A stretch of DNA of 64,000 bases from Aplysia californica (taxonomy: Eukaryota). The position numbers and the translations under genes are program-made. Positions within the stretch are counted from its first letter, which is position 1; each line of letters starts with the position of its first letter. The DNA lies in contig NW_004797315.1 in assembly GCF_000002075.1 (NCBI RefSeq), forward strand, positions 2,041,281-2,105,280. Direction: 5' to 3'. Under the pieces are notes generated by a model. It ran no database searches. It had not been told where the DNA came from and saw only the letters and a list, made by a program, of their open reading frames with translations. Below, in pieces: positions 14,417 to 27,200 of the stretch.

Positions 14417-17400
14417 GTGTTGCCGTGCCGAAATGGAAAAGTTGATCTTGAACCGTTTCCTGCACTTCCTCAGCCTCTGGCAACACTCTTTGAAGGTGTG
14501 ACTTCTAGCTCAGCACATTTCTTAGAAAACATTAGGAAATACAATAGCGCTTTTCAGTTAACCTCACTAGGCTGTAAAGAAGTTACGATGGCAGGATGGA
14601 AACCCCAATTCTGAATCCAAGGTCAGCTTTGTCATCTTATTGGACCTCTGGAGTCATCCCGTGAAGCACAGCCTTCTTTTTTTAATATATATATTTCATG
14701 GATGGTGAATAACAGGTTGAAAGGAATAAAATCACTGATGGACTATGTCACAGCACATTACTTGACCTCCAGGATGTGTTAAGTGAAAAACAGGAATACG
14801 TAAAGGAATTGAAATGTTCCTATGAATTTGCCAACAACCAGAGCTTGGGGGATTTCAAAATTGTGATCAGTGAGGCGGCACGACCAATAGGAACTCATGA
14901 AAGGACACACAATGCACCAACTCTGAATAAAGTTGCTATTCTTATCCCAAACAATCCTGTAGGACACCGAGATATTTTGCTTCACACTAGAACTGAACAG
15001 CGGCAAAGAATTTCAGAATTTCACAAGGCCTATGACATTTTGCACTAACCTTTGCTTTTCCCATGTGGAAGTGATAGCTGGAATCTGAATATTGAAACTT
15101 ACAAGCCAGCACAAAATAACACATCTTCAATTCTATTGCTTTCATTTCTTCACAAGGCAAGGAAACTATTTATTGCAAGCACGTCAGCTCTTTCACTCAG
15201 CAGTATATTGTCGATGCTTACGCAAAGATTGAATGTGAACGCCTTCAGTTTATTCGGAGAGAACAGAACCGACTCAGGGCAGACGGTTATCAAGAACTTG
15301 GAGACACAATTTCCAGTGCAGATGGCAACCCAAACAATGTTGGACAAAAGGTTGTTCTGTCTTCTTCTTATTAATATTATGGAGGACTGCGCTACATGTT
15401 CGAAAAACAACAAGATCCATCAGCTCCTTGCATGAAAAATGGAAAATGTTCAAAACAGTTTCCTAAACCCTGAACAATTGGTCATTTTTAATGACTTACG
15501 GCAAAAACTGAAAGATAAAGTAGGAAGAATGATGTGGAAAGACATTTGTGATAGAGACAGTACTGGCGTGTGAAAGAGCGGAAGAGCACATTGCAATTGC
15601 TACAGCAAGTACTGGACTCGCAGCAAAACTATTATTACCAGGAGGACGGACAGTGCACAGTACCTTTAAGGTACCAATAAATATTGCCCTCAATGACGCA
15701 TCTACATGTGCAATAAAGAAAGGGACTGCTCTCTCACAAATACTTCAAGATGCCACAATTTTGATGACTGATGAAGTCACATCACTTCAAAGAAAAGTGA
15801 TTGAAGCTATTGACAGTACTCTGAAGGACATATGATCTTCAAATGAAGTTATGGGCGGATTGTTGACACTTGTCTGCGGTGATTTCCGACAAATCCTTCC
15901 AGTTGTGCCACGAGGCTCTAGGGCAAATACTATACTCTGTCACATTTTTAAGTATACACATTTCGAAGCTCAATAAAACAAAATCTAGGCCACCAATTAC
16001 TTTCAAATTTACACACTGATTACGTGATATACCTGTCGCTGGTGAGCTGTTTTCAGATTTCTAAACGCGCGAGTGGTTTTGTAACTTCATGCGTGTTACA
16101 TGTTTTGTCTTTTTTTTAAGAATTACTCATGATACGGCAATGATTTGTTTAAAAAAGAAGCACACATCAAAGCTTTGTTATTTTTTAAACAATTCGCCAG
16201 TGATAAAACTTCTTAAGTCTACGTTTCATCATGCCACGCCCAAAGAGAAAATGTGCGAAATCAGCTCGTTGGAATGATTCGCGGGAGTGCCTCGGTATCC
16301 ACTGTTGCGAGATATTTTAATGTAACAAGAAGACCTGTGTACACAACAATGGATCGTGAGAAAACAACAAAATCAGGAAAGGATCGAAACTGCTAACGCG
16401 GGAAAAGAAAAACTACTCCAAGAGAGGATTATTTATACGCCTGTCGCATCTACGGAATCGTTTCAAAACGGCTAGACAAACCCGAGATGAGTTGAACAAC
16501 ATGCGACAACACCAGTCTCAGACACTTCCTCAACTTGAGAGAGCATCGCATGAAGAGTGGAATAACATCTCTCATCAGGCAGTGCAGCGATTGAGTGATT
16601 CAAGGCGGCGACGATGTCAGGCTGTCATCAATGCTACTGATCGTGTTACTTGTGTAGACCATCCCCACACTCTTGTAACTTATGTAAGTCGCCAATAAAC
16701 CTGTTATGTTAACATTCCGCTTTGTGGTTGTTGTTTTTGTTTTTAAAATTGATTGAATTCGTATTCCTGAAATTTTAAAGAATATCGACTCATTGTGAAA
16801 CTAACTATTTTAATTTTAACAAAGTGTTTACTTGAAAATGTGACAGAGTACATTGTTGATGCATCTCTAAAATCATCCGATCTGTGGCACTCTGAGAAGA
16901 CGTACAAGCTGGTGAAAAACATGAGAGTGTTTTTAAATGCTGAAGCAAGTCTGCATTCTTTTGCTGACGATCTGCCGTGTGTTGGGAATGGTGATCTCAA
17001 AATAAAGGCTCCCCCAGACCAAGTTTCATTAGGTCTGTTTGGAACTCGGTGTGACGATATTGATTTCCTTATCACATATACCGAGATTTTCAGACAAAAT
17101 TTGTTGATAAAGATAGGCTTATGCAGCGTGCAATTTTAGCCCCTCACAATGACAGTGCTGCTAAAATTAATGACACCTTACTGGAAAAAATTCCCAACCA
17201 AACATTCACATACACATCAATAAATGTCATGATAAATGAGGAAGAATCAGTTCAATTCCCTGCAGAATTTCTAAATTCTATTGAAATATCTGGCCTTCCA
17301 CAACACATTTTAAAATTGAAAGTTGGTACGCCTGTCACGTTGCTGCGATCAATAAAGTCCAAACAATGAATGGCATGAGATGTGCAGTGACTTCTTGCAA

Positions 17401-17722
17401 CAGATACACTGTTGAAGTTGAAGTTGCTGTTGGTGCACACAAAGGAGAAAGGTATTTGGTGCCCAGAATTCCGCTACAGCCATCGGATACAACTTTTCCA
17501 TTCGTCTTTCAACGGAAGCAAATACCCCTACGTGCATGCTTTTCGATGACGATCAACAAAGCCCAGGGACAAATATTGTATTCCATCGGACTGGATCTAC
17601 AACAACCAGTATTTTCCCATGGAATGCTATACGTTGCCTTTTCAAGAAGTGGAAGGAGAGACGCCATTGCTTATGTGTCATCGCCTCTGACCAGGAATGT
17701 TGTCTACAAAGAAGTCCTGTAA
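14417..17722 (+). mobile_element. Degenerate Helitron RepHel (Rep region plus PIF1-like helicase), internally deleted
   Basis: Fragments CRNGKV..FLENIRKYNSAFQLTSLG, HNAPTLNKVA..ISEFHKAYD, QQYIVDAYAKIECERL, ASTGLAA..GGRTVHSTFKVP, GDFRQILPVV, RAILAPHN, LKLKVGTPV, NGMR, FQRKQIPLRACFSMTINKAQGQ..FSHGMLYVAFSR..TRNVVYKEVL*. Many stops and frameshifts. Confidence 0.92.
15935..16848 (+). mobile_element. Internally deleted Tc1-like element inserted in the Helitron helicase
   Basis: TA-flanked 25-bp TIR CTCTGTCACATTTTTAAGTATACAC / GTGTTTACTTGAAAATGTGACAGAG. Retains the Tc1 transposase C-terminus (LERASHEEWNNISHQAVQRLSDSRRRRCQAVINA). The Helitron frame RGSRAN|IVDASLKSSDLW resumes across it. Confidence 0.85.
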
Positions 17723-18633: not shown

Positions 18634-20096
18634 GTTATCCACTCACTTTACACTTTATGGCACACTAACATACAGGCCACCATATTATCACCGCTTCCCA
18701 TAGCGTAAGCCAGTAGTTCAGATCTACTAAGCCAAACATTTTGAAAAAAAATAAATTTTTAATTGCAGTTTCTTATTCTTCAGTATTGGCTGTCGGTGCT
18801 TTAAAATATTTAGTTGAAAATCAAATTTTAAATGTTGAATAAAACTAAATACATATATAATAAAAGTAAGATTTTTAAAAAAATAATAAAACATTTCATT
18901 TTCTCTCCTAAAAATATTTTGCTTTCTGGGCTTAGAACAATTCGTCCTTCTAAACACGTACTAACGTAAGCCACATCTGACCCGAAATCAAGTTATAGCA
19001 ATCACGCGATTCCCTTTATCCGATACTACATCCTCTCAAAACATCGTAGGAATCGAGCTATAAATAGCTGAGATATAGTCGATTCCAGTTTGAACGTATC
19101 CCACTTGCCCACAAAAAGATACAGCACGTACTAACACACTGTTGGTTATGCTAGTGCGTGACGTCCACTTTGACCCATTGTTCTGTTTTTATTATACAGC
19201 ACAAACTAACGTAAGCCACACAGCCGGGGCTGAGCCTATGGCAACAAAACATCACGCAGCACTTCTAGAGAGCGGGAAGACAAGCTAAACTACACACGTG
19301 AGCAGTGTGCTTCATGTGAGGCAGTGAATGCTCAGACTCCACTTCTTGAAGTCCCTTTTTACTCGTCCTTTGTTTACAAATGGGATCCCGCTCTGGACAA
19401 CCACTCTTTCTTTGACATGTAGCCCTACTGTTCAAACTCTAATTGACATTCAGAACCCTGGTGAAGTCTTAAGCTTACAGACTGCATAAGTCATGGGTGT
19501 CCAACTGCCACTGAGAACTTTAAGGGACAAATAGATGCACGTATGTGCTTCAAGGACACTGATATGCTTAGTGAGGCAGACAGTGATGAAATGTCAGCAT
19601 GGCTACGACTCAGATGGCGATCCGGAATTCAATCCTGGAACATGCTTGGTCAAAAGGTGCAATGCTGAAGTATGGGCGGCTTGTCCTGATTGTGAAATCC
19701 TTCTTTGCTTTGATCATTTCAATAAAGAGATTGCATCGTGAGTTCAACATAAAAAAGCACGAGAAGGTCAAAGGAAAAAATCAACAACACATAAAAGCTG
19801 TAGGTAGGCCCTTAAAGTTTAAGATTCCCGCTGGTGTGAATATGAACACTGATGCTCCCGATCAGTTTCAGACAAAGGAAACTGTCATTGATGAGGGGGG
19901 AGGAAGAATGCAAAGATCAGTTCCCGAGCAGTACACAGTGGAGGGAAGTGAGAAAGAAGTCAGAAAGGAAAAGAAACTCAGATCAAACAAACAGAAGGAA
20001 GCCAAAATGAAGAGGAATTTGGGACAAGAGTTCACAAGCATGTACCACATGTTCATCCAGGAATGGATACCAAGGCCATCAAGCTTCACTACATAA

Positions 20097-21032
20097 AACG
20101 ATGTATTCAAAAGTACAAATCTGTCAGTCCACCGGCCCAAGAAAGACCAGTGCTCTCTTTGTGTCAATTATCACCTAGGAAATGAAGAAACAAAGATAGG
20201 TCTTAGGGGAAAGTTTGAGATCCATGTGGGAGAAAAAGAAAAGGTCAGGGAAATAAAGGAGCTACGCAAGAAAGAAGCTCAGGAAAGTGAAAACATTCTC
20301 TGTGCAAGTTTTGATTTGCAGCAGGTCATTTACCTCCCTATGACTCAGGAGAGTGCCATCTTTTACAAAAGGACATTGTCCAACTACAACCTGACTTTCT
20401 ATAACATTGCTAACAGAGACTGTCACTGCTTCACTTACGATGAAACGCAAAGCAAACGTGGATCCTCGGAAATTTCAACTACAGTCCACCTTGCCCTGAA
20501 ATTTTATGACAACCGTGGCATCAAAAAAGTTTTTCTTTTTGCCGATGGACGCAGTGGTCAGAACAAAAATTCGATTACGCCTTCGATGATGTTGTATACT
20601 GTGAACAATAGTGTGAATCTTGAAGAGATTTCATTGAGGTTCTTTGAAACAAACCATGATCAGAACGAGGGTGATTCTGTAACTACAAAAAAGCCAGACA
20701 TTGTGTTATGGGAGGAAAAAGGCAAAGAGGTGCACTTGGTAGAGCTCACGGTGCCCCACGAGGACAATATCTATGCCGCTCATGAGCGGAAAGAAAACCG
20801 TTACGAGGCACTCGTCGAACAATGTGAGGAGGCAGGATGGAAGGCAACCCATTTTCCGGTAGAGGTAGGATGCAGAGGTTTTGCAGCAACAAGCGCCCGT
20901 AAGTGGATGAGAGTGGCAGGACTTACTGCAAAGAAAAGCAACGAACTCACAAACTCCCTTCAGGAGACAGCAGAGAAAGCCAGTCACTGGATCTGGTTGA
21001 AGCGAGAGGACTCAGGCTGGAATGAATCCTAA
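20097..21032 (+). pseudogene. Chimeric open frame: Sola1 DDD transposase core fused to a HERO-type restriction-like endonuclease
   Basis: Single stop-free frame. Transposase sequence runs to ...NEGDSV, then TTKKPDIVLW..VELTVPHE..AHERKENRY..PVEVGCRGF..AEKASHWIWLKR..W*. Confidence 0.7.
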
Positions 21033-21222
21033 AGTTGGCAGCAGAGGAAAACAGTCGAACTAACATGGAGACCTCGCATCGGTGAGAGGGCTCGGTGCGT
21101 CAGAAAAGCTGTAGAGAGGAAGAGCCCGAAACAGCGACGCATTCTCTCCTGATGATCTCCATGCTAGAGTCCGGGATACGGAGCGTTCGACGGTGAGCAG
21201 TGCATACGGCTGTTTAGACTAC
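20682..21222 (+). mobile_element. 5'-truncated HERO-clade (RLE) non-LTR retrotransposon: endonuclease domain plus 3' UTR
   Basis: PD..ELT / K..(K/R)Y / EVGCRG RLE motifs, stop at 21030-21032, ~190-bp 3' UTR. ACTAC at both junctions (20682-20686, 21218-21222). The transposase resumes afterwards. Confidence 0.82.
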
Positions 21223-24200
21223 GCAATAGGACATTCCCTGAAGAGGGCTGGGGATTTGTTCCTTCCTTCTCGGGTAGCAACAGTGAAGTCTCTCGCTCGA
21301 CCTCAAAAGCCTCACCTGGTGAATCAGATGCAGTCTAAAGACTTTCGGGATCTCAAAGGCTTATCAAAGGACTTGAGAATCCTGGACGCACGAAGAGGAT
21401 CTGATACGGAAGACACTTTTTTGTGGAACAATATCATGGAACTGCGAGTCACTAAAGAACAGCCAGATAAAGTCTTCTACAAGACGAGCCACTTTGACAG
21501 TTCATTCAAAACCCTGTCCCTCAAGAGACTGAAGAATAGTGTAAAGGACTGTGCACCTCAGAAACTGAACTCAGGACCAACAAACATTTCGAGAGAAAAA
21601 TTCACTGATTTGTTTTCACTCTGTTCTGGTCCCTCACCAGTAATTAAACTGGAAGAGCACAAAGCTTTTTATCTTTCCTTACCCCATGAGTTATAGTTGG
21701 CTGTGAAGGTCTCCTTTGGGGCGAAGCTATTTTACTTTGTTCGCTAAGGTGTAACTCCAGCTTAAGTGTATAGCAGTCAAGTTATGACACAAAATGTATT
21801 TAATTTCACATTTTCTACTCTATTTCTGAGTTACTGCTTATTAGTCTTTGAAATATGTCATTGAATTTACATCTCTACAGCAAGATCATGTTCCCAATAA
21901 GCCTAAGTGGAGCTCTAACTCTAGCGGAAATGTTCCCTGAATTCTTTATTATTTGTTTTTGCAAATTTGAAAATTTAGTGAGCACATACTAGCTCAAGTT
22001 TTTTGTAGCTTGTTTTGTTTTTAGTAAAGTACTGCTTCCCATATTAAACAGGATAGTGTTTCACAAAAGAATAGTCCATAATGAAACGTTTGTTTAAGCA
22101 GTAGATAGTTGCAGTGATTATTTAATTTTAAGTTGATTTTTTTATCATGTTCAGTTGGCGTCTGCATATTTCGAGTTGTTGTTAACATTGTCATTTGTTA
22201 CGGATAATACAGCCCGTGAATTTTAAACCAAATCGATCTTTCTTTGTATTTTTATTGTTATTTGGAAGTTACCATTTAGGCTTAAGCCACGCAATGAACG
22301 CATTATGCTTTAGAATACAAAAGCACGTACTAACGTATCCAACAATCTAATAACGTAAGCCACACATCGAGGCTTTCATTGACGTAGCACGTACTAGCGT
22401 ATCGGACAAAAAGGTCATTTTCCCTTCAAAACCTACTAATCTCACAAAGATGCTTCTAGCCAATTGAAAAGTAGTTGGCCCACACACGTTATGTCAAAAT
22501 ATTAAGGGCAAGGTCAGCTATTTGACGCCACAATGGGATGGTGAAAATCGCTCTAATCTTTAAACGTCTCTCGTGCAAAACTAACAAAATGTGGCTTACG
22601 CTAGTACGTGTTTTGAGGGACGAATTGAACAGCTAGCCAACGATAGAGGGCATCAAGGAAAAAAGAATAGCAAAATTGGCTGTCCTCTTCCCATAGCATC
22701 ACACACGCATGCACACACACACGAACGCGCACACACACACACACGCGCAATCAGTCCCAATGGTTCATCAAAAACGTACAAAGGTGTTCTCTGTACAGGC
22801 AGGTCAAACATTTTTTAAAAAGCATTATTTTCTACCCTAGCACTGCAAGCGAACTGGAAAAATCAAATTCCTTGAATACCTCAGCACTGCATATAGATTG
22901 GATTGGACAATCTATCTTTCATTCAGGTATAATAATATCAAAAGTACATGTACACCATTGATACTTTGCTGGTTTCAAAATCAACAAACTAAGTAAGAGG
23001 TAGAGTAACGTGACCCGGGCCCGGCTACTTCCGCATTCTCCCGTTTCCATGGCAGTTTTGGCTAAAATCTTCAGCGGTAATGGCGTCCCTTAACTAATTT
23101 CGGTTGTTTACTTCCGCTTCCTTTTCAAATCAAGTACGTTTTGGAAAGGCGGCACCATCAAATTGAAATTTCACCGAAAAAGTTTTTATTGTTTCTGAGG
23201 TAAGGTCGCGCTAACCTTCAATAATTGACATTATTTATGGCCCTTTCTTGCTTTCTACACTAACCCCAGCCTCATTGTTGCTAACATTTGTTGCTCAATC
23301 ATGTTTCTTTGATGCCTGTTCATAACTGACCTAGTTGGGGGGGAAGGGGGGAGGGGTGGGTCGCACCCAGTACAGGAAAATTTCATCCTCCTACCCTGGC
23401 GCCACCATGAGTGACCACACCAAGAAAACACATCAAAGGTAGGCGGTATTTGGCATGTTTGAATGTTGTCTAACAGTTCTGTATCCACATTTTGTTTACT
23501 AACATATTATACCTACTGAATACTAACAGTTCAGTTTTTGGTGACTCTGGTCGCAACCAGGGCGAAATGGTCGCGTAACAGGCAGAGTGGTCGTGCCTGG
23601 CACTGGTGGTGGCCATGCCCTCGCCGAGTGGTTGCGCCCTTGCCGAAGTAGTTACATTATTATAAACAATTTTGTGAACACAATTAAGGACGAGAACCGC
23701 ATTCTAACAGCAGAAATCGGAAGTTGATATCCCAAATTAATGGCGGACACAGTAGCGTTGTGATAGCTGCCGGCAGTAAGCGAAACAGGATATTTTAGTC
23801 CATGTGGTCGTGCCCTGGTACAGTTACTCTAGCACAAAAAGACAAAAGAATCGTATTGAACAAACCTTTCGATGTGAATTCTAAAAAAGACAAAAATAGA
23901 TGAAAAAAAAATGTTTCAAAATGTCAATAGATTCAAAAGCACTTCATAACCAGGGGTGGTAAATATTCGATACATATTAAGTAAAACAGTAAGATTTCTA
24001 CCTCTCCAAAGCTGCATTCAAATAGTTGGACTAGAAATACAGCACTCAGATTACAAACCCCATTCCCACCCGGCCAACGTGGCCAACCACATTGACACTA
24101 TAGGAGAAGCTGTACGAGCCAACAAAAGAACTGAGCAGGATATGATAGATACCGGACTTCAAATGAGATGCAATTGAAAAGAAAAAGAAGGAGACAGACT

Positions 24201-24227: not shown

Positions 24228-27200
24228 TCAGAAAAGAACAAGCTCTACTTTGTTTGGCCGGGTATGTAACAGATCATCAGCCTCAAGGAGGGAGGCCACA
24301 GTAGCTTTAAATAATTCCAACTCCTCCGACGAAGCCTCATCCGTGTGACATTCATAAGGGTATGAGAGTTGTAGCACTTTGAGCTTTTTTAGTTTGGCTA
24401 CACCCTTTGTCAAAGTCAAAACTGTACTGGTGGTCCACGTGTTGCCTGCCAGGCTGAGAAACAGCAGGTTCTGGAAGCCAGAGAAATGAATGGTCAGGCT
24501 CATTACAATTTCATCGGTGAAGCGACAGTTTTCCAGTTCTAGAACTTTCACACAGGAGGAAATATTTGCAAGGATGCGGCCCAGAGAAACGTAGCACGGC
24601 GTCAGGCTGTTCTCACTGAGGTCCAGTTCTTCTAGAGACAGCGTGTGAGGGCAGGTGGCCAACGCACCCACATCAGCTGGGGTGAGTCCACATGCAGCTA
24701 GGCACAGCTGTTGTAGCGGGTGAGAAATGCCGCTCAGTATCGTGGCCAGCTGGTTCTTCAACCGGTTGTTGCTGAGGTCGAGTCTGCGCAGATGGACCAG
24801 AGGGGCGAACACCTGCTGTAAGATGAGAGCCGAGGAGGCCTGGTAGAGGTTCAGGTGATTGCACGACAGGTCCAGGGCGGTCAGCTGGGTCAGAGACTGA
24901 AGGGTTGGAGCCATCAACAGTAAATGACTGTTCTCTAGCGAGTTGTACTTCAGCTGCAGACCTCGGATCTCCTGAGGACAGATAGCAAAGTATGGGTGAT
25001 TGGCGGGTGCTCTGAATCAGATGTGGTTGGCTCCTTATGTCTTATCAAACATATATCATCCTGAATCTCCTTCTTCTTTTCTTTGTATATAATTCTCTAC
25101 TTAGTAAAAACTTTGATCTTTGGCACCTACTTGTGTTACAAGTGCCATAAATTTTTTTACTAAAACTAAAAGACAGCAAAGTTATACAGTATCCGTCATG
25201 CATGTAATGTAACGGCCTTTTCTTTATTAAAGCTGACTGGGCTTGCTCTTAAGTAAATAGCAACTTAGCAATCCATAGAGACCACAATTATTGTTATTCA
25301 AAAGAGCTTATATATAATTAAGCCCCCATCGACACAAATCAAATCATAAGGAACGTCATCTGCTTCAAATCTGTCGGTCAGAGCCAACCTGGACTGAGTG
25401 GGATACCACATTCCAGCAGACTGGTGGATACTCAGCTAAAAAAAAAAAACAACCTTTCCTCACTTAACCCTCGTCCTGCGGGGGACGGGTTTATGTCGCC
25501 CGATAAGCCTTTTTCGACACCTCGCCTGCGTTCTGGTCCCGAGTCAGTCTAGCCCCTGACTCAGCGCACGCGCACCATCTTACGTGAAATTTGGGTCCCG
25601 AGTCGGATCCCCATTCACGCAGGTCAAGTGTGTGCGTGTCAGTCTGCTTGAGTTTTTGTGCGTTTGTGGCCTTCTTCTAGAACCGCCCGCATTGGTTCGT
25701 AATCGAGGCATACGTCTCATTCAAAACACGCCAAGTTGGTAGCTCTAGATGTTCGTCCAATGAAATTATAGAAGAAATTGACCCACTTAGACATGAGGAG
25801 CTCGAAAGGATAGTCAGGAAACAAGACTTCCATTTTTCTATACAAAATCTTTCAAATTGAGCTTGATTTTGTATGAAATGATACTACCTGATAAAAAATA
25901 AGCTTGTTTGATAGTTTTGAATACCATTGTGCAGGTACAAAGAACAATTTGAGTGCAAAACATTCCGAAATTGACCTATATTATCCCTCAGGTCATTCAT
26001 AACAACAAGAGCGTCTAGAAAGGTTATTCGAATGGGCGTAACTACTTATAATGTCTCATCAGCTTATGAGAGGGGGTTATTCATGTGTTTGCAACACTTT
26101 ATAAATAGAAAGGTACGAAAGATAGAGCATTATTTTCATCATCGATTAACACACTCCCACCGTATTCATGGCAAAAACACATGTTTCCTGGCGCGTGCAC
26201 TGTACACCAACAGTGCACACTGAGTGACCCCGGCGGCCTGCCCGGAACGTCCGACGTAATCGGTTGCTGATAAGATTAAATTCGCGTCGACGACCGCGAC
26301 TGCAGCGTACGCAGATTCAACTATAATTGACTATAAAGCAAACCCAGCAGTTTAAAAATGCTTGCAAATAGCCCCAGTGGTTTAAACAGGAGATCGACAA
26401 GCTAGTTCTTTGTGGTTCGTGTATATTTACCACTTTTAGTGCGAATGAACGGGTTATTTGTCCAACGGACTGAACAACTGAAAGTAAGGAACTTCCATGC
26501 AGTTCGTTGTTGTTTCTCGTACGCGAAGCACGGCACGGCGAGTTTGTGTCGAAGTTTATTGAAACTCGATAATTTTTGTGAAGATTTAAGTGATAGTGAA
26601 GTACCAGATAGATAACTTCATAAATCAAAATGTGAATTCGCCTAGCAGTGATGAAGATGATTGAGAAAGTGACATTAGCTAGATCTAGACCAACATCGTC
26701 TCTCCATCGTGAATCTGACTCGTCAGCGAGTACGCAGCCTGGTCCGGCTGGGAATGATGATAGATCTAGATCTAGCCCCAGTACTAAACTCTAGTTCAAA
26801 TCAGCCCTCAAAGTGGAGAAGATATATAATGTACCCAGACCTGGGACATCTATTGACAGATCTAGATCTAGTCCTAGAACTAGCAACACTGACAATGAAA
26901 ACACTTCTCAGCCTGTCAACGTGGAAGATCTAGATCTAGATTTTTTTTTTTTTTTTCGTTTTCAAAATTAATTGTCACTTACATTTTTATGCTACTTCAC
27001 CGTACACACTCATGCTTCATTCTCCTACACACAAACACACACTGCCACAACCATTTTGTGTAAGTCTATTAGATTTCTGCTTTGTCACATCACTTCCTTT
27101 TCTTTTTTCAACATTTTTTTCAGGGGCAAATTTGTCCCAACTTTCTATCCCATACATTTTTTGTTGTTCATTCTTCACACAATGTGTTTATTGTGTCTGT

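Follow-up and report, generated by a model that had tools for sequence, protein, structure and literature searches.

Can a reading frame that runs without a stop from the catalytic core of a DNA transposase into the nuclease domain of a retrotransposon be a working gene, or is it the chance meeting of two elements? The question is raised by a locus of Aplysia californica (assembly GCF_000002075.1, contig NW_004797315.1, positions 2,041,281 to 2,105,280), which we analysed as one stretch of 64,000 nucleotides, hereafter the window. Our explanation, to which we assign as a whole a probability of about 0.6, combines an accidental fusion with a conserved, rewired hammerhead that is predicted to cut and with a likely circular mode of copying. 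The fusion itself is ordinary, and its passenger RNA matters more.

The stop-free frame occupies positions 20097-21032 (311 codons, 311 aa). Its codons 1-195 (20097-20681, + strand) make up the catalytic region of a DDD transposase, with the motifs FDLQ at 20310, ADGR/GQNKN at 20541 and NEGDS at 20664, the aspartates D73, D150 and D193, and the substitutions R93T, W114Y, C152R and G188D. The last 116 codons encode a restriction-like endonuclease (RLE) domain that follows directly and whose profile matches R2 endonuclease structures (9nl3, 9dou and 9nl2; E 2.5e-4 to 6.5e-4). The PD-(D/E)XK letters and all three catalytic aspartates of the transposase are retained. Searches of Pfam gave nothing above cut-off for the fusion, the RLE part, the upstream frame or the C-terminus.

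Around this frame lies a Sola1-type element (18943-22622), bounded by terminal inverted repeats (TIRs) at 18943-18976 (+) and 22589-22622 (-) and by an AATT target-site duplication (TSD) at 18939-18942 and 22623-22626. Broken remnants of the transposase N-terminus, in two frames (19601-20042, +; residues 91-150 and 192-235 of the homologue P0121), stop at an internal deletion of about 520 nt common to seven siblings, and an in-frame TAA (20094-20096, +) immediately precedes the fused frame. The LINE insert spans 20682-21222, with one ambiguous base per end (541-543 nt), and is a 5'-truncated copy of a Hero-like element: the RLE domain and its stop (20682-21032, +), with CCHC motif and reverse transcriptase (RT) missing, are followed by the 3' UTR (21033-21223, +), which reaches the family's fixed 3' end and carries neither poly-A nor TSD. 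From 21223 the displaced transposase C-terminus resumes (21223-21696, +; P0121 residues 631-785). The preliminary description had recognised this architecture from the letters of the DNA, including the length of the frame, the motifs, the TIRs, the 3' UTR, the displaced C-terminus and the defects (TAA, N-terminal deletion, substitutions at conserved positions, missing CCHC), and our analysis bears it out, C152R and G188D being among the substitutions. Its further statement that one restored base would regenerate GDSVHxAI was mistaken, since uninterrupted siblings read GDSVHSAI and the insertion site has lost six bases (His-Ser) without any TSD.

The host family comprises 27 matching loci, and among the seven siblings with both ends read the duplication is AATT in five, ACTT in one and ATAT in one (clipped by the locus end). 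A 4-bp AWWT duplication is a hallmark of Sola1 in the accessible part of PMC3845634. The window element resembles Sola1 in having such a TSD, TIRs and three conserved aspartates, and differs in that it is a non-autonomous derivative which has suffered a deletion and holds a LINE insert. The label Sola1-type follows the structural features tested, and the assignment to Sola1 is putative. Longer homologues of the transposase region (n = 58, the best 69% identical to the frame of sibling L024) are unnamed or assigned to DUF7869, a Pfam family that the sibling transposase matches only below cut-off, and they conserve the three catalytic aspartates in 58/58, 57/58 and 55/56 cases.

Several other features of the window copy bear on the state of its frame. 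Changes affect C152 (conserved in 58/58 homologues), R93 (56/58), G188 (53/57) and W114 (55/58), and H196 (57/57) is separated from the fused frame together with the 156 C-terminal residues. In the N-terminal half about 170 residues are missing and the remaining pieces lie in different frames; ATG first appears in the fused frame at codon 82 (20340), past the first catalytic aspartate. The deletion of about 520 nt and the TAC-to-TAA stop are found in the same 7 of 19 siblings compared as well as in the window copy, which shows that the frame was already broken before the LINE inserted. Sibling L024, which has no insert, contains a 353-codon frame running from the same TAA. A second Sola subfamily (L027, L031-L034, L036-L041 and L043) keeps the N-terminal region but is about 680 nt short in its 3' part, and this distinct deletion indicates that two different deletion derivatives have spread.

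Elsewhere in the window, fragments in several frames at 14713-17722, whose motifs resemble those of the PIF1-type helicase of a Helitron, are split by a segment that has 37-nt inverted repeats at its ends (15926-15962 and 16821-16857). A leucine-rich-repeat-like frame of 262 codons (24228-25016, - strand) is probably a host exon.

The fused frame is almost certainly a single accidental nested insertion in an already broken Sola1-type copy, and it is likely non-functional. A 20-mer across the junction has one match in G000 at ≤1 mismatch, and the junction is spanned by one of 40 scored matches (187 candidates). Compared with its five closest siblings, the transposase part carries 15 nonsynonymous and 3 synonymous changes (pN/pS 1.22), and with all 19 siblings 18 and 6 (pN/pS 0.73); these counts indicate that it is evolving neutrally. 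Private changes in the RLE part (2 nonsynonymous, 1 synonymous) are too few for a selection test, and against the family majority this part shows 3 of each kind (pN/pS 0.26). Given a truncated LINE landing in an open frame, the arithmetic probability of a sense, in-frame insertion is 1/6, and the in-frame fusion is no more than chance.

RNA data were examined in three confirmed runs (X19-X21), which are poly-A runs of one study, look 3'-biased and come from animals that may lack the insertion. They contain no junction-crossing reads, and at position 21087 none of 74 reads carries the window allele while all 74 carry the family allele. Past 21223, most family reads (71, 63 and 42 in X19-X21) enter one identical flank, which suggests that poly-A transcripts of the 3' UTR in these libraries come mainly from one locus elsewhere. 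Contigs from X1 and X2, which belong to two studies and whose RNA status is presumed, do bridge the junction, with at least 31 letters on each side and a depth of about 8 as against 122-196 for ordinary family contigs; no counted bridge was found in X7 or X8. The bridging contigs imply that the junction is real and occurs in more than one sample, and they leave room for weak transcription of the fusion.

Two other readings of the junction may be weighed here. The multicopy repeats on both sides could have been joined by the assembler into a chimera, a negligible prospect given that contigs of two studies bridge the junction and that the displaced transposase C-terminus picks up again after the insert. 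The preliminary description had raised, speculatively, the idea of a functional Sola1 transposon with a captured RLE nuclease and a structured RNA, moving or expressed as a unit, and had itself named a junction that is single-copy, untranscribed and evolving neutrally as the observation that would speak against it. The frame is indeed open across the junction with its aspartates and PD-(D/E)XK letters in place, the intact TIRs would permit mobilisation in trans, and the junction occurs in samples of two other studies. However, there is one copy, its TAA and deletion predate the insertion, pN/pS of the transposase part is about 1.2, an invariant Cys and His and the C-terminal 156 aa have been lost, the RLE lacks CCHC and RT, and no read of the confirmed RNA runs spans the junction. 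This functional reading is therefore largely refuted and, in our judgement, highly improbable. Nuclease-cargo transposons are exemplified by Fanzor/TnpB, and the window element resembles them only superficially, in holding a nuclease domain and a structured RNA within TIRs; unlike them, it shows no multi-copy cargo, no conservation, another nuclease fold and no guide RNA, and one junction locus stands in place of several independently inserted copies. What survives of the original proposal is the structured RNA, which is real but belongs to the LINE and not to the fusion.

The donor of the insertion is a young and abundant LINE family with 388 candidate 3' UTRs, the top matches being 98-99% identical. 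Copies vary in their 5' truncation and share a fixed 3' end. Locus L053 holds a 1040-codon frame with an RT match (RVT_1, E 1.4e-19), the CCHC motif is visible in family translations, and the single ORF comprises RT, CCHC and a PD-(D/E)XK endonuclease. Insertions are mostly non-specific (57 distinct 3' flanks, with a bias of 1-3 shared nt). The label Hero-like follows the preliminary description and the structural features tested, and membership of the HERO clade is putative. In the portion of PMC4640811 available to us, HERO elements have a single ORF with RT, CCHC and RLE and many non-specific insertions. The present family agrees with them in both respects. With R2 it shares an RT followed by a C-terminal RLE (the profile match to 9nl3, 9dou and 9nl2) and, in addition, a predicted self-cleaving RNA. 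In R2 the ribozyme is HDV-like, lies 5' and releases the RNA from a co-transcript with rRNA (PMC6765202 and PMC13580325, both in excerpt), unlike the present candidate, which is of hammerhead type and lies behind the ORF of an element whose insertions are not site-specific. At L011 (176-1052), a minisatellite of mostly 51-nt period, derived from the last 31-47 nt of the LINE, lies directly behind a truncated copy.

Inspection of the 3' UTR by eye revealed CUGAUGA and GAAAC, together with a complementary GUA site, in non-circular order. The permuted hammerhead candidate (21064-21163, + strand like all its parts) is closed by helix P0 (21064-21071/21156-21163), followed by hairpin P1 (21072-21087), stem II with its partner upstream (21088-21093/21122-21127), helix X (21096-21101/21136-21141), stem III (21108-21112/21131-21135) and stem I (from 21114, to 21148), with the core letters GAAA at 21128-21131 and CUGAUGA at 21149-21155. 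By analogy with the hammerhead core, self-cleavage is predicted after GUA, between 21113 and 21114. The core is intact in the window copy. In hairpin P1, positions 21076 and 21087 differ from the family majority, and the change at 21087 is private and opens the base pair next to P0. Searching Rfam over the element returned no hammerhead at E ≤ 5, with one chance-level match, and the 3' UTR alone folds modestly (z -1.85) in a model without pseudoknots.

The fold was compared among relatives. These are 79 loci on metagenome contigs that encode RLE domains related to that of the LINE; they come from the best 80 kept of 268 and are partly redundant. A descriptor made of the core, stems I and III, the upstream stem II and the closing helix P0 matches 33 of the 80 3' regions among the best 80 of 268, and 30 of the 69 that are at least 200 nt long, so that 39 of the long regions fail the full descriptor; it matches none of 1380 Markov controls and none of 69 reverse complements. 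Anchoring on the core and stem III retained 51 of 80 regions, 28 of them non-redundant, for swap tests in which strands were exchanged 1000 times with relatedness ignored. True partners exceeded swapped ones in stem I (4.75 against 2.10 bp), upstream stem II (4.68 against 3.76), P0 (6.5 against 4.78) and helix X (5.43 against 3.73), and in each case 0 of 1000 swaps reached the observed value. The downstream stem II of canonical SGC hammerheads, by contrast, stood at chance level (1.39 against 1.28 bp; 244 of 1000 swaps). Stem III varies with its pairing kept, though it had served as an anchor. Since the MAFFT alignment A2, which keeps 12 invariant core columns, misaligns the stems, pairs were counted by script.

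The core was also approached blindly, by searching for the helices only with the core letters left free. This was passed by 28 of 80 regions, 18 of which remained after a score floor and a redundancy filter. All 18 read CUGANGA, with N7 the only variable position, and all have U16.1 and a non-G at position 17; GAAA is found in 17, the remaining one being a register shift of one base. We conclude from these comparisons that the hammerhead fold in the LINE 3' UTR is very probably real. From the resemblance of its core to known hammerheads we further predict, with good but lesser confidence, that it cleaves in vitro. The triplet at the cut site is GUU in 10 of the 28 non-redundant sequences, and GUU is a slow hammerhead cleavage triplet. 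A palindromic six-mer occupies the P1 loop in about 13 of the 28 non-redundant ribozymes (L117-L195, by eye) and not in the window copy; it is possible that it acts as a kissing-loop dimer signal.

No pile-up of RNA ends at the predicted cut was seen in the three poly-A runs. Tag-like loose ends at 21114 in X19 (8 reads) were considered as RNA 5' ends at this site and dismissed because similar numbers occur at 21046, 21088, 21173 and 21180. A loose end at 21114 in X21 belongs to an unrelated dispersed repeat (L224-L226) with about 1000 matches in G000 at ≤1 mismatch. Of the three copies of this repeat that were fetched, one goes on into a short stretch matching the sequence at the cut site.

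How does this fold relate to known hammerheads? The circular order of the three blocks that defines the classical types I, II and III is not seen here. In the consulted portion of Eckert et al. (2023; PMC10085705), type SGC (HRIMA-1 and its variants) has an uninterrupted block C, the non-circularly permuted type is reported from no known organism's genome, with the exception of one bacterial GCS candidate, and in no known hammerhead alignment is CUGAnGA separated from its stems by over 1-2 nt. The candidate resembles SGC in its block order (5'-S, G, C-3'), in all core letters, in a short linker between stems I and II (2-7 nt here, typically 3 in the same portion of PMC10085705) and in an additional helix that joins the outer strands. 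It differs in that the partner of stem II lies upstream of block S and not after CUGAnGA, in that block C is closed by helix P0 and hairpin P1, and in sitting in an animal LINE, unlike the SGC examples of that text. We did not file it as SGC because of the upstream partner and the chance-level pairing downstream; the fold works like SGC and falls outside the class as defined by an uninterrupted block C. The two helices between CUGAnGA and its stem may impair catalysis. The literature that we searched, which lay outside subscription journals, Repbase entries and supplements (including the alignments of Eckert et al.), yielded no link between HERO elements and hammerheads. Within that literature the wiring is undescribed, and sequence comparison makes it a well-supported variant of permuted hammerheads, for which cleavage is predicted.

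The anatomy of family copies suggests a role for such a ribozyme. The LINE unit is 3683 nt long and its fixed 3' end, without poly-A, lies 110 nt past the predicted cut, while the 5' ends of family copies show no pile-up. In 23 of 54 solitary copies the 3' flank matches the continuing unit for at least 3 nt. None of the 28 loci matching the 5' region starts at unit position 1 with its own flank (the nearest start at 5 and 32), and 13 of them, one marginally, continue into the 3' end of a previous unit via the same link, at 83-99% identity. A search with the link pattern gave 15 matches, 12 of them true junctions. Seven of these 12 loci reach beyond the predicted cut (to -1293), and the other five have their starts in the interval from the cut to the junction (+5 to +95), none exactly at the cut (nearest +5 and +14); no indel was present at the predicted cut in 45 of 45 copies. 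Among distant loci with at least 1 kb downstream, an ORF start follows on the same strand in 7 of 40 and on the opposite strand in none, and these head-to-tail contigs may be repeats collapsed by the assembler. In one junction-spanning copy (L213/L252, G000:C92), unit position 182 is joined to 3631 by way of a 7-nt microhomology; the 3' end is therefore present twice and 3.4 kb are absent.

Variants shared between tandem repeats offer a closer view of the template. Twelve tandem loci were fetched, three of which are informative, the other nine having no variants, N gaps, a clipped second repeat or rearrangements. At L242 five variants that occur in none of 54 other copies are common to both repeats, with 2 of 1403 sites different between them; at L246 both repeats carry the same five non-majority variants, and 6 of 365 sites are different; at L252 they have one subfamily variant in common. 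No discordance at subfamily sites was found among these three. The shared private variants, together with the run-on into a previous unit, point to one template read twice, likely an RNA circle, and on this sequence evidence we lean, by a modest degree, towards the prediction that the family is copied from circular RNA. The shared variants might also come from gene conversion, from precise jumps between template ends, or from the misassembly of repeats that are nearly identical.

Circular RNA intermediates have been proposed for Penelope-like elements (PLEs) and retrozymes (PMC6765202, in excerpt), and hammerhead-bearing members of both groups are known (compare PMC7229834 and 10.64898/2026.07.22.740005). 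Like them, the LINE family has a hammerhead within a retroelement, forms partial tandem copies and is proposed to pass through a circular RNA. Those elements have classical type I or III hammerheads and a GIY-YIG or borrowed enzyme, whereas the present family is an RLE-encoding non-LTR element with non-circular wiring and fixed priming 110 nt past the predicted cut.

These observations could also be read in terms of a linear template. The ribozyme of an upstream partial repeat would trim the 5' end, on the model of the 5' HDV ribozyme of R2 or the upstream repeat of PLEs, the downstream ribozyme would stay uncut, and longer-than-unit copies would be made either on tandem transcripts left uncut or by an RT that jumps between the two ends of a single molecule, template jumping being a property of R2. 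The five junction copies that begin at +5 to +95 also fit linear RNA starting from the cut, and uncleaved oligomers figure as possible PLE templates in the part of the review available (PMC6765202). Nevertheless, copies derived from cut RNA would lose the upstream ribozyme, so that the overlap should erode, whereas the junction persists in copies 83-99% identical to the reference unit; the predicted cut shows no scar in any of the 45 copies, and both L242 repeats carry the same private variants. A linear template thus appears unlikely. More doubtful still is a hammerhead-shaped RNA that cleaves hardly or not at all, kept for RT binding or translation, with tandems produced by template jumps or gene conversion. 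The split block C, the frequent GUU, the lack of an RNA-end pile-up and the intact predicted site in all solitary copies would suit such an RNA, but the blind test found G at position 17 in none of 18 sequences and N7 free to vary, the pattern needed for cleavage.

Copying from a circle, our preferred reading, would join these parts into the following course. A Sola subfamily lost about 520 nt and gained the TAA before spreading non-autonomously, as the shared lesions show, and a LINE copy inserted with the 6-nt target deletion visible at its borders. In the LINE RNA, stems I, II, III, X and P0 fold around an intact core, as compensation and the blind core test show; the RNA would cleave after NUH and the cut ends would rejoin into a circle. 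To judge from the anatomy of the copies, target-primed reverse transcription would start at a fixed internal site with 1-6 nt of microhomology, and the RT could run round the circle more than once. We give even odds to the broader proposal that Hero-type RLE LINEs across animals possess a hammerhead of undescribed topology, whose split block C is held by two inserted helices and which cuts their RNA and closes it again into circles of unit length, and that the RT primes at an internal site of these circles and travels round them.

If the candidate is a ribozyme, the occurrence of non-circularly permuted hammerheads, known from anonymous metatranscriptomes, would widen to animal genomes, with a wiring that departs from the block-C rule given by Eckert et al. 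in the available part of PMC10085705. If the template is circular, the clade of this LINE would not follow the textbook view in which LINEs prime at the 3' end of a linear RNA, and an RLE LINE would replicate by the logic that has been put forward for Penelope elements and retrozymes. The comparison of shared variants made at L242 is a test that needs only sequence and is usable in any genome. A circular template would also bear on the engineering of RLE retrotransposons for gene insertion. Should the broader proposal be true, an autonomous clade of LINEs would retrotranspose from circular RNA and not from a linear 3' end.
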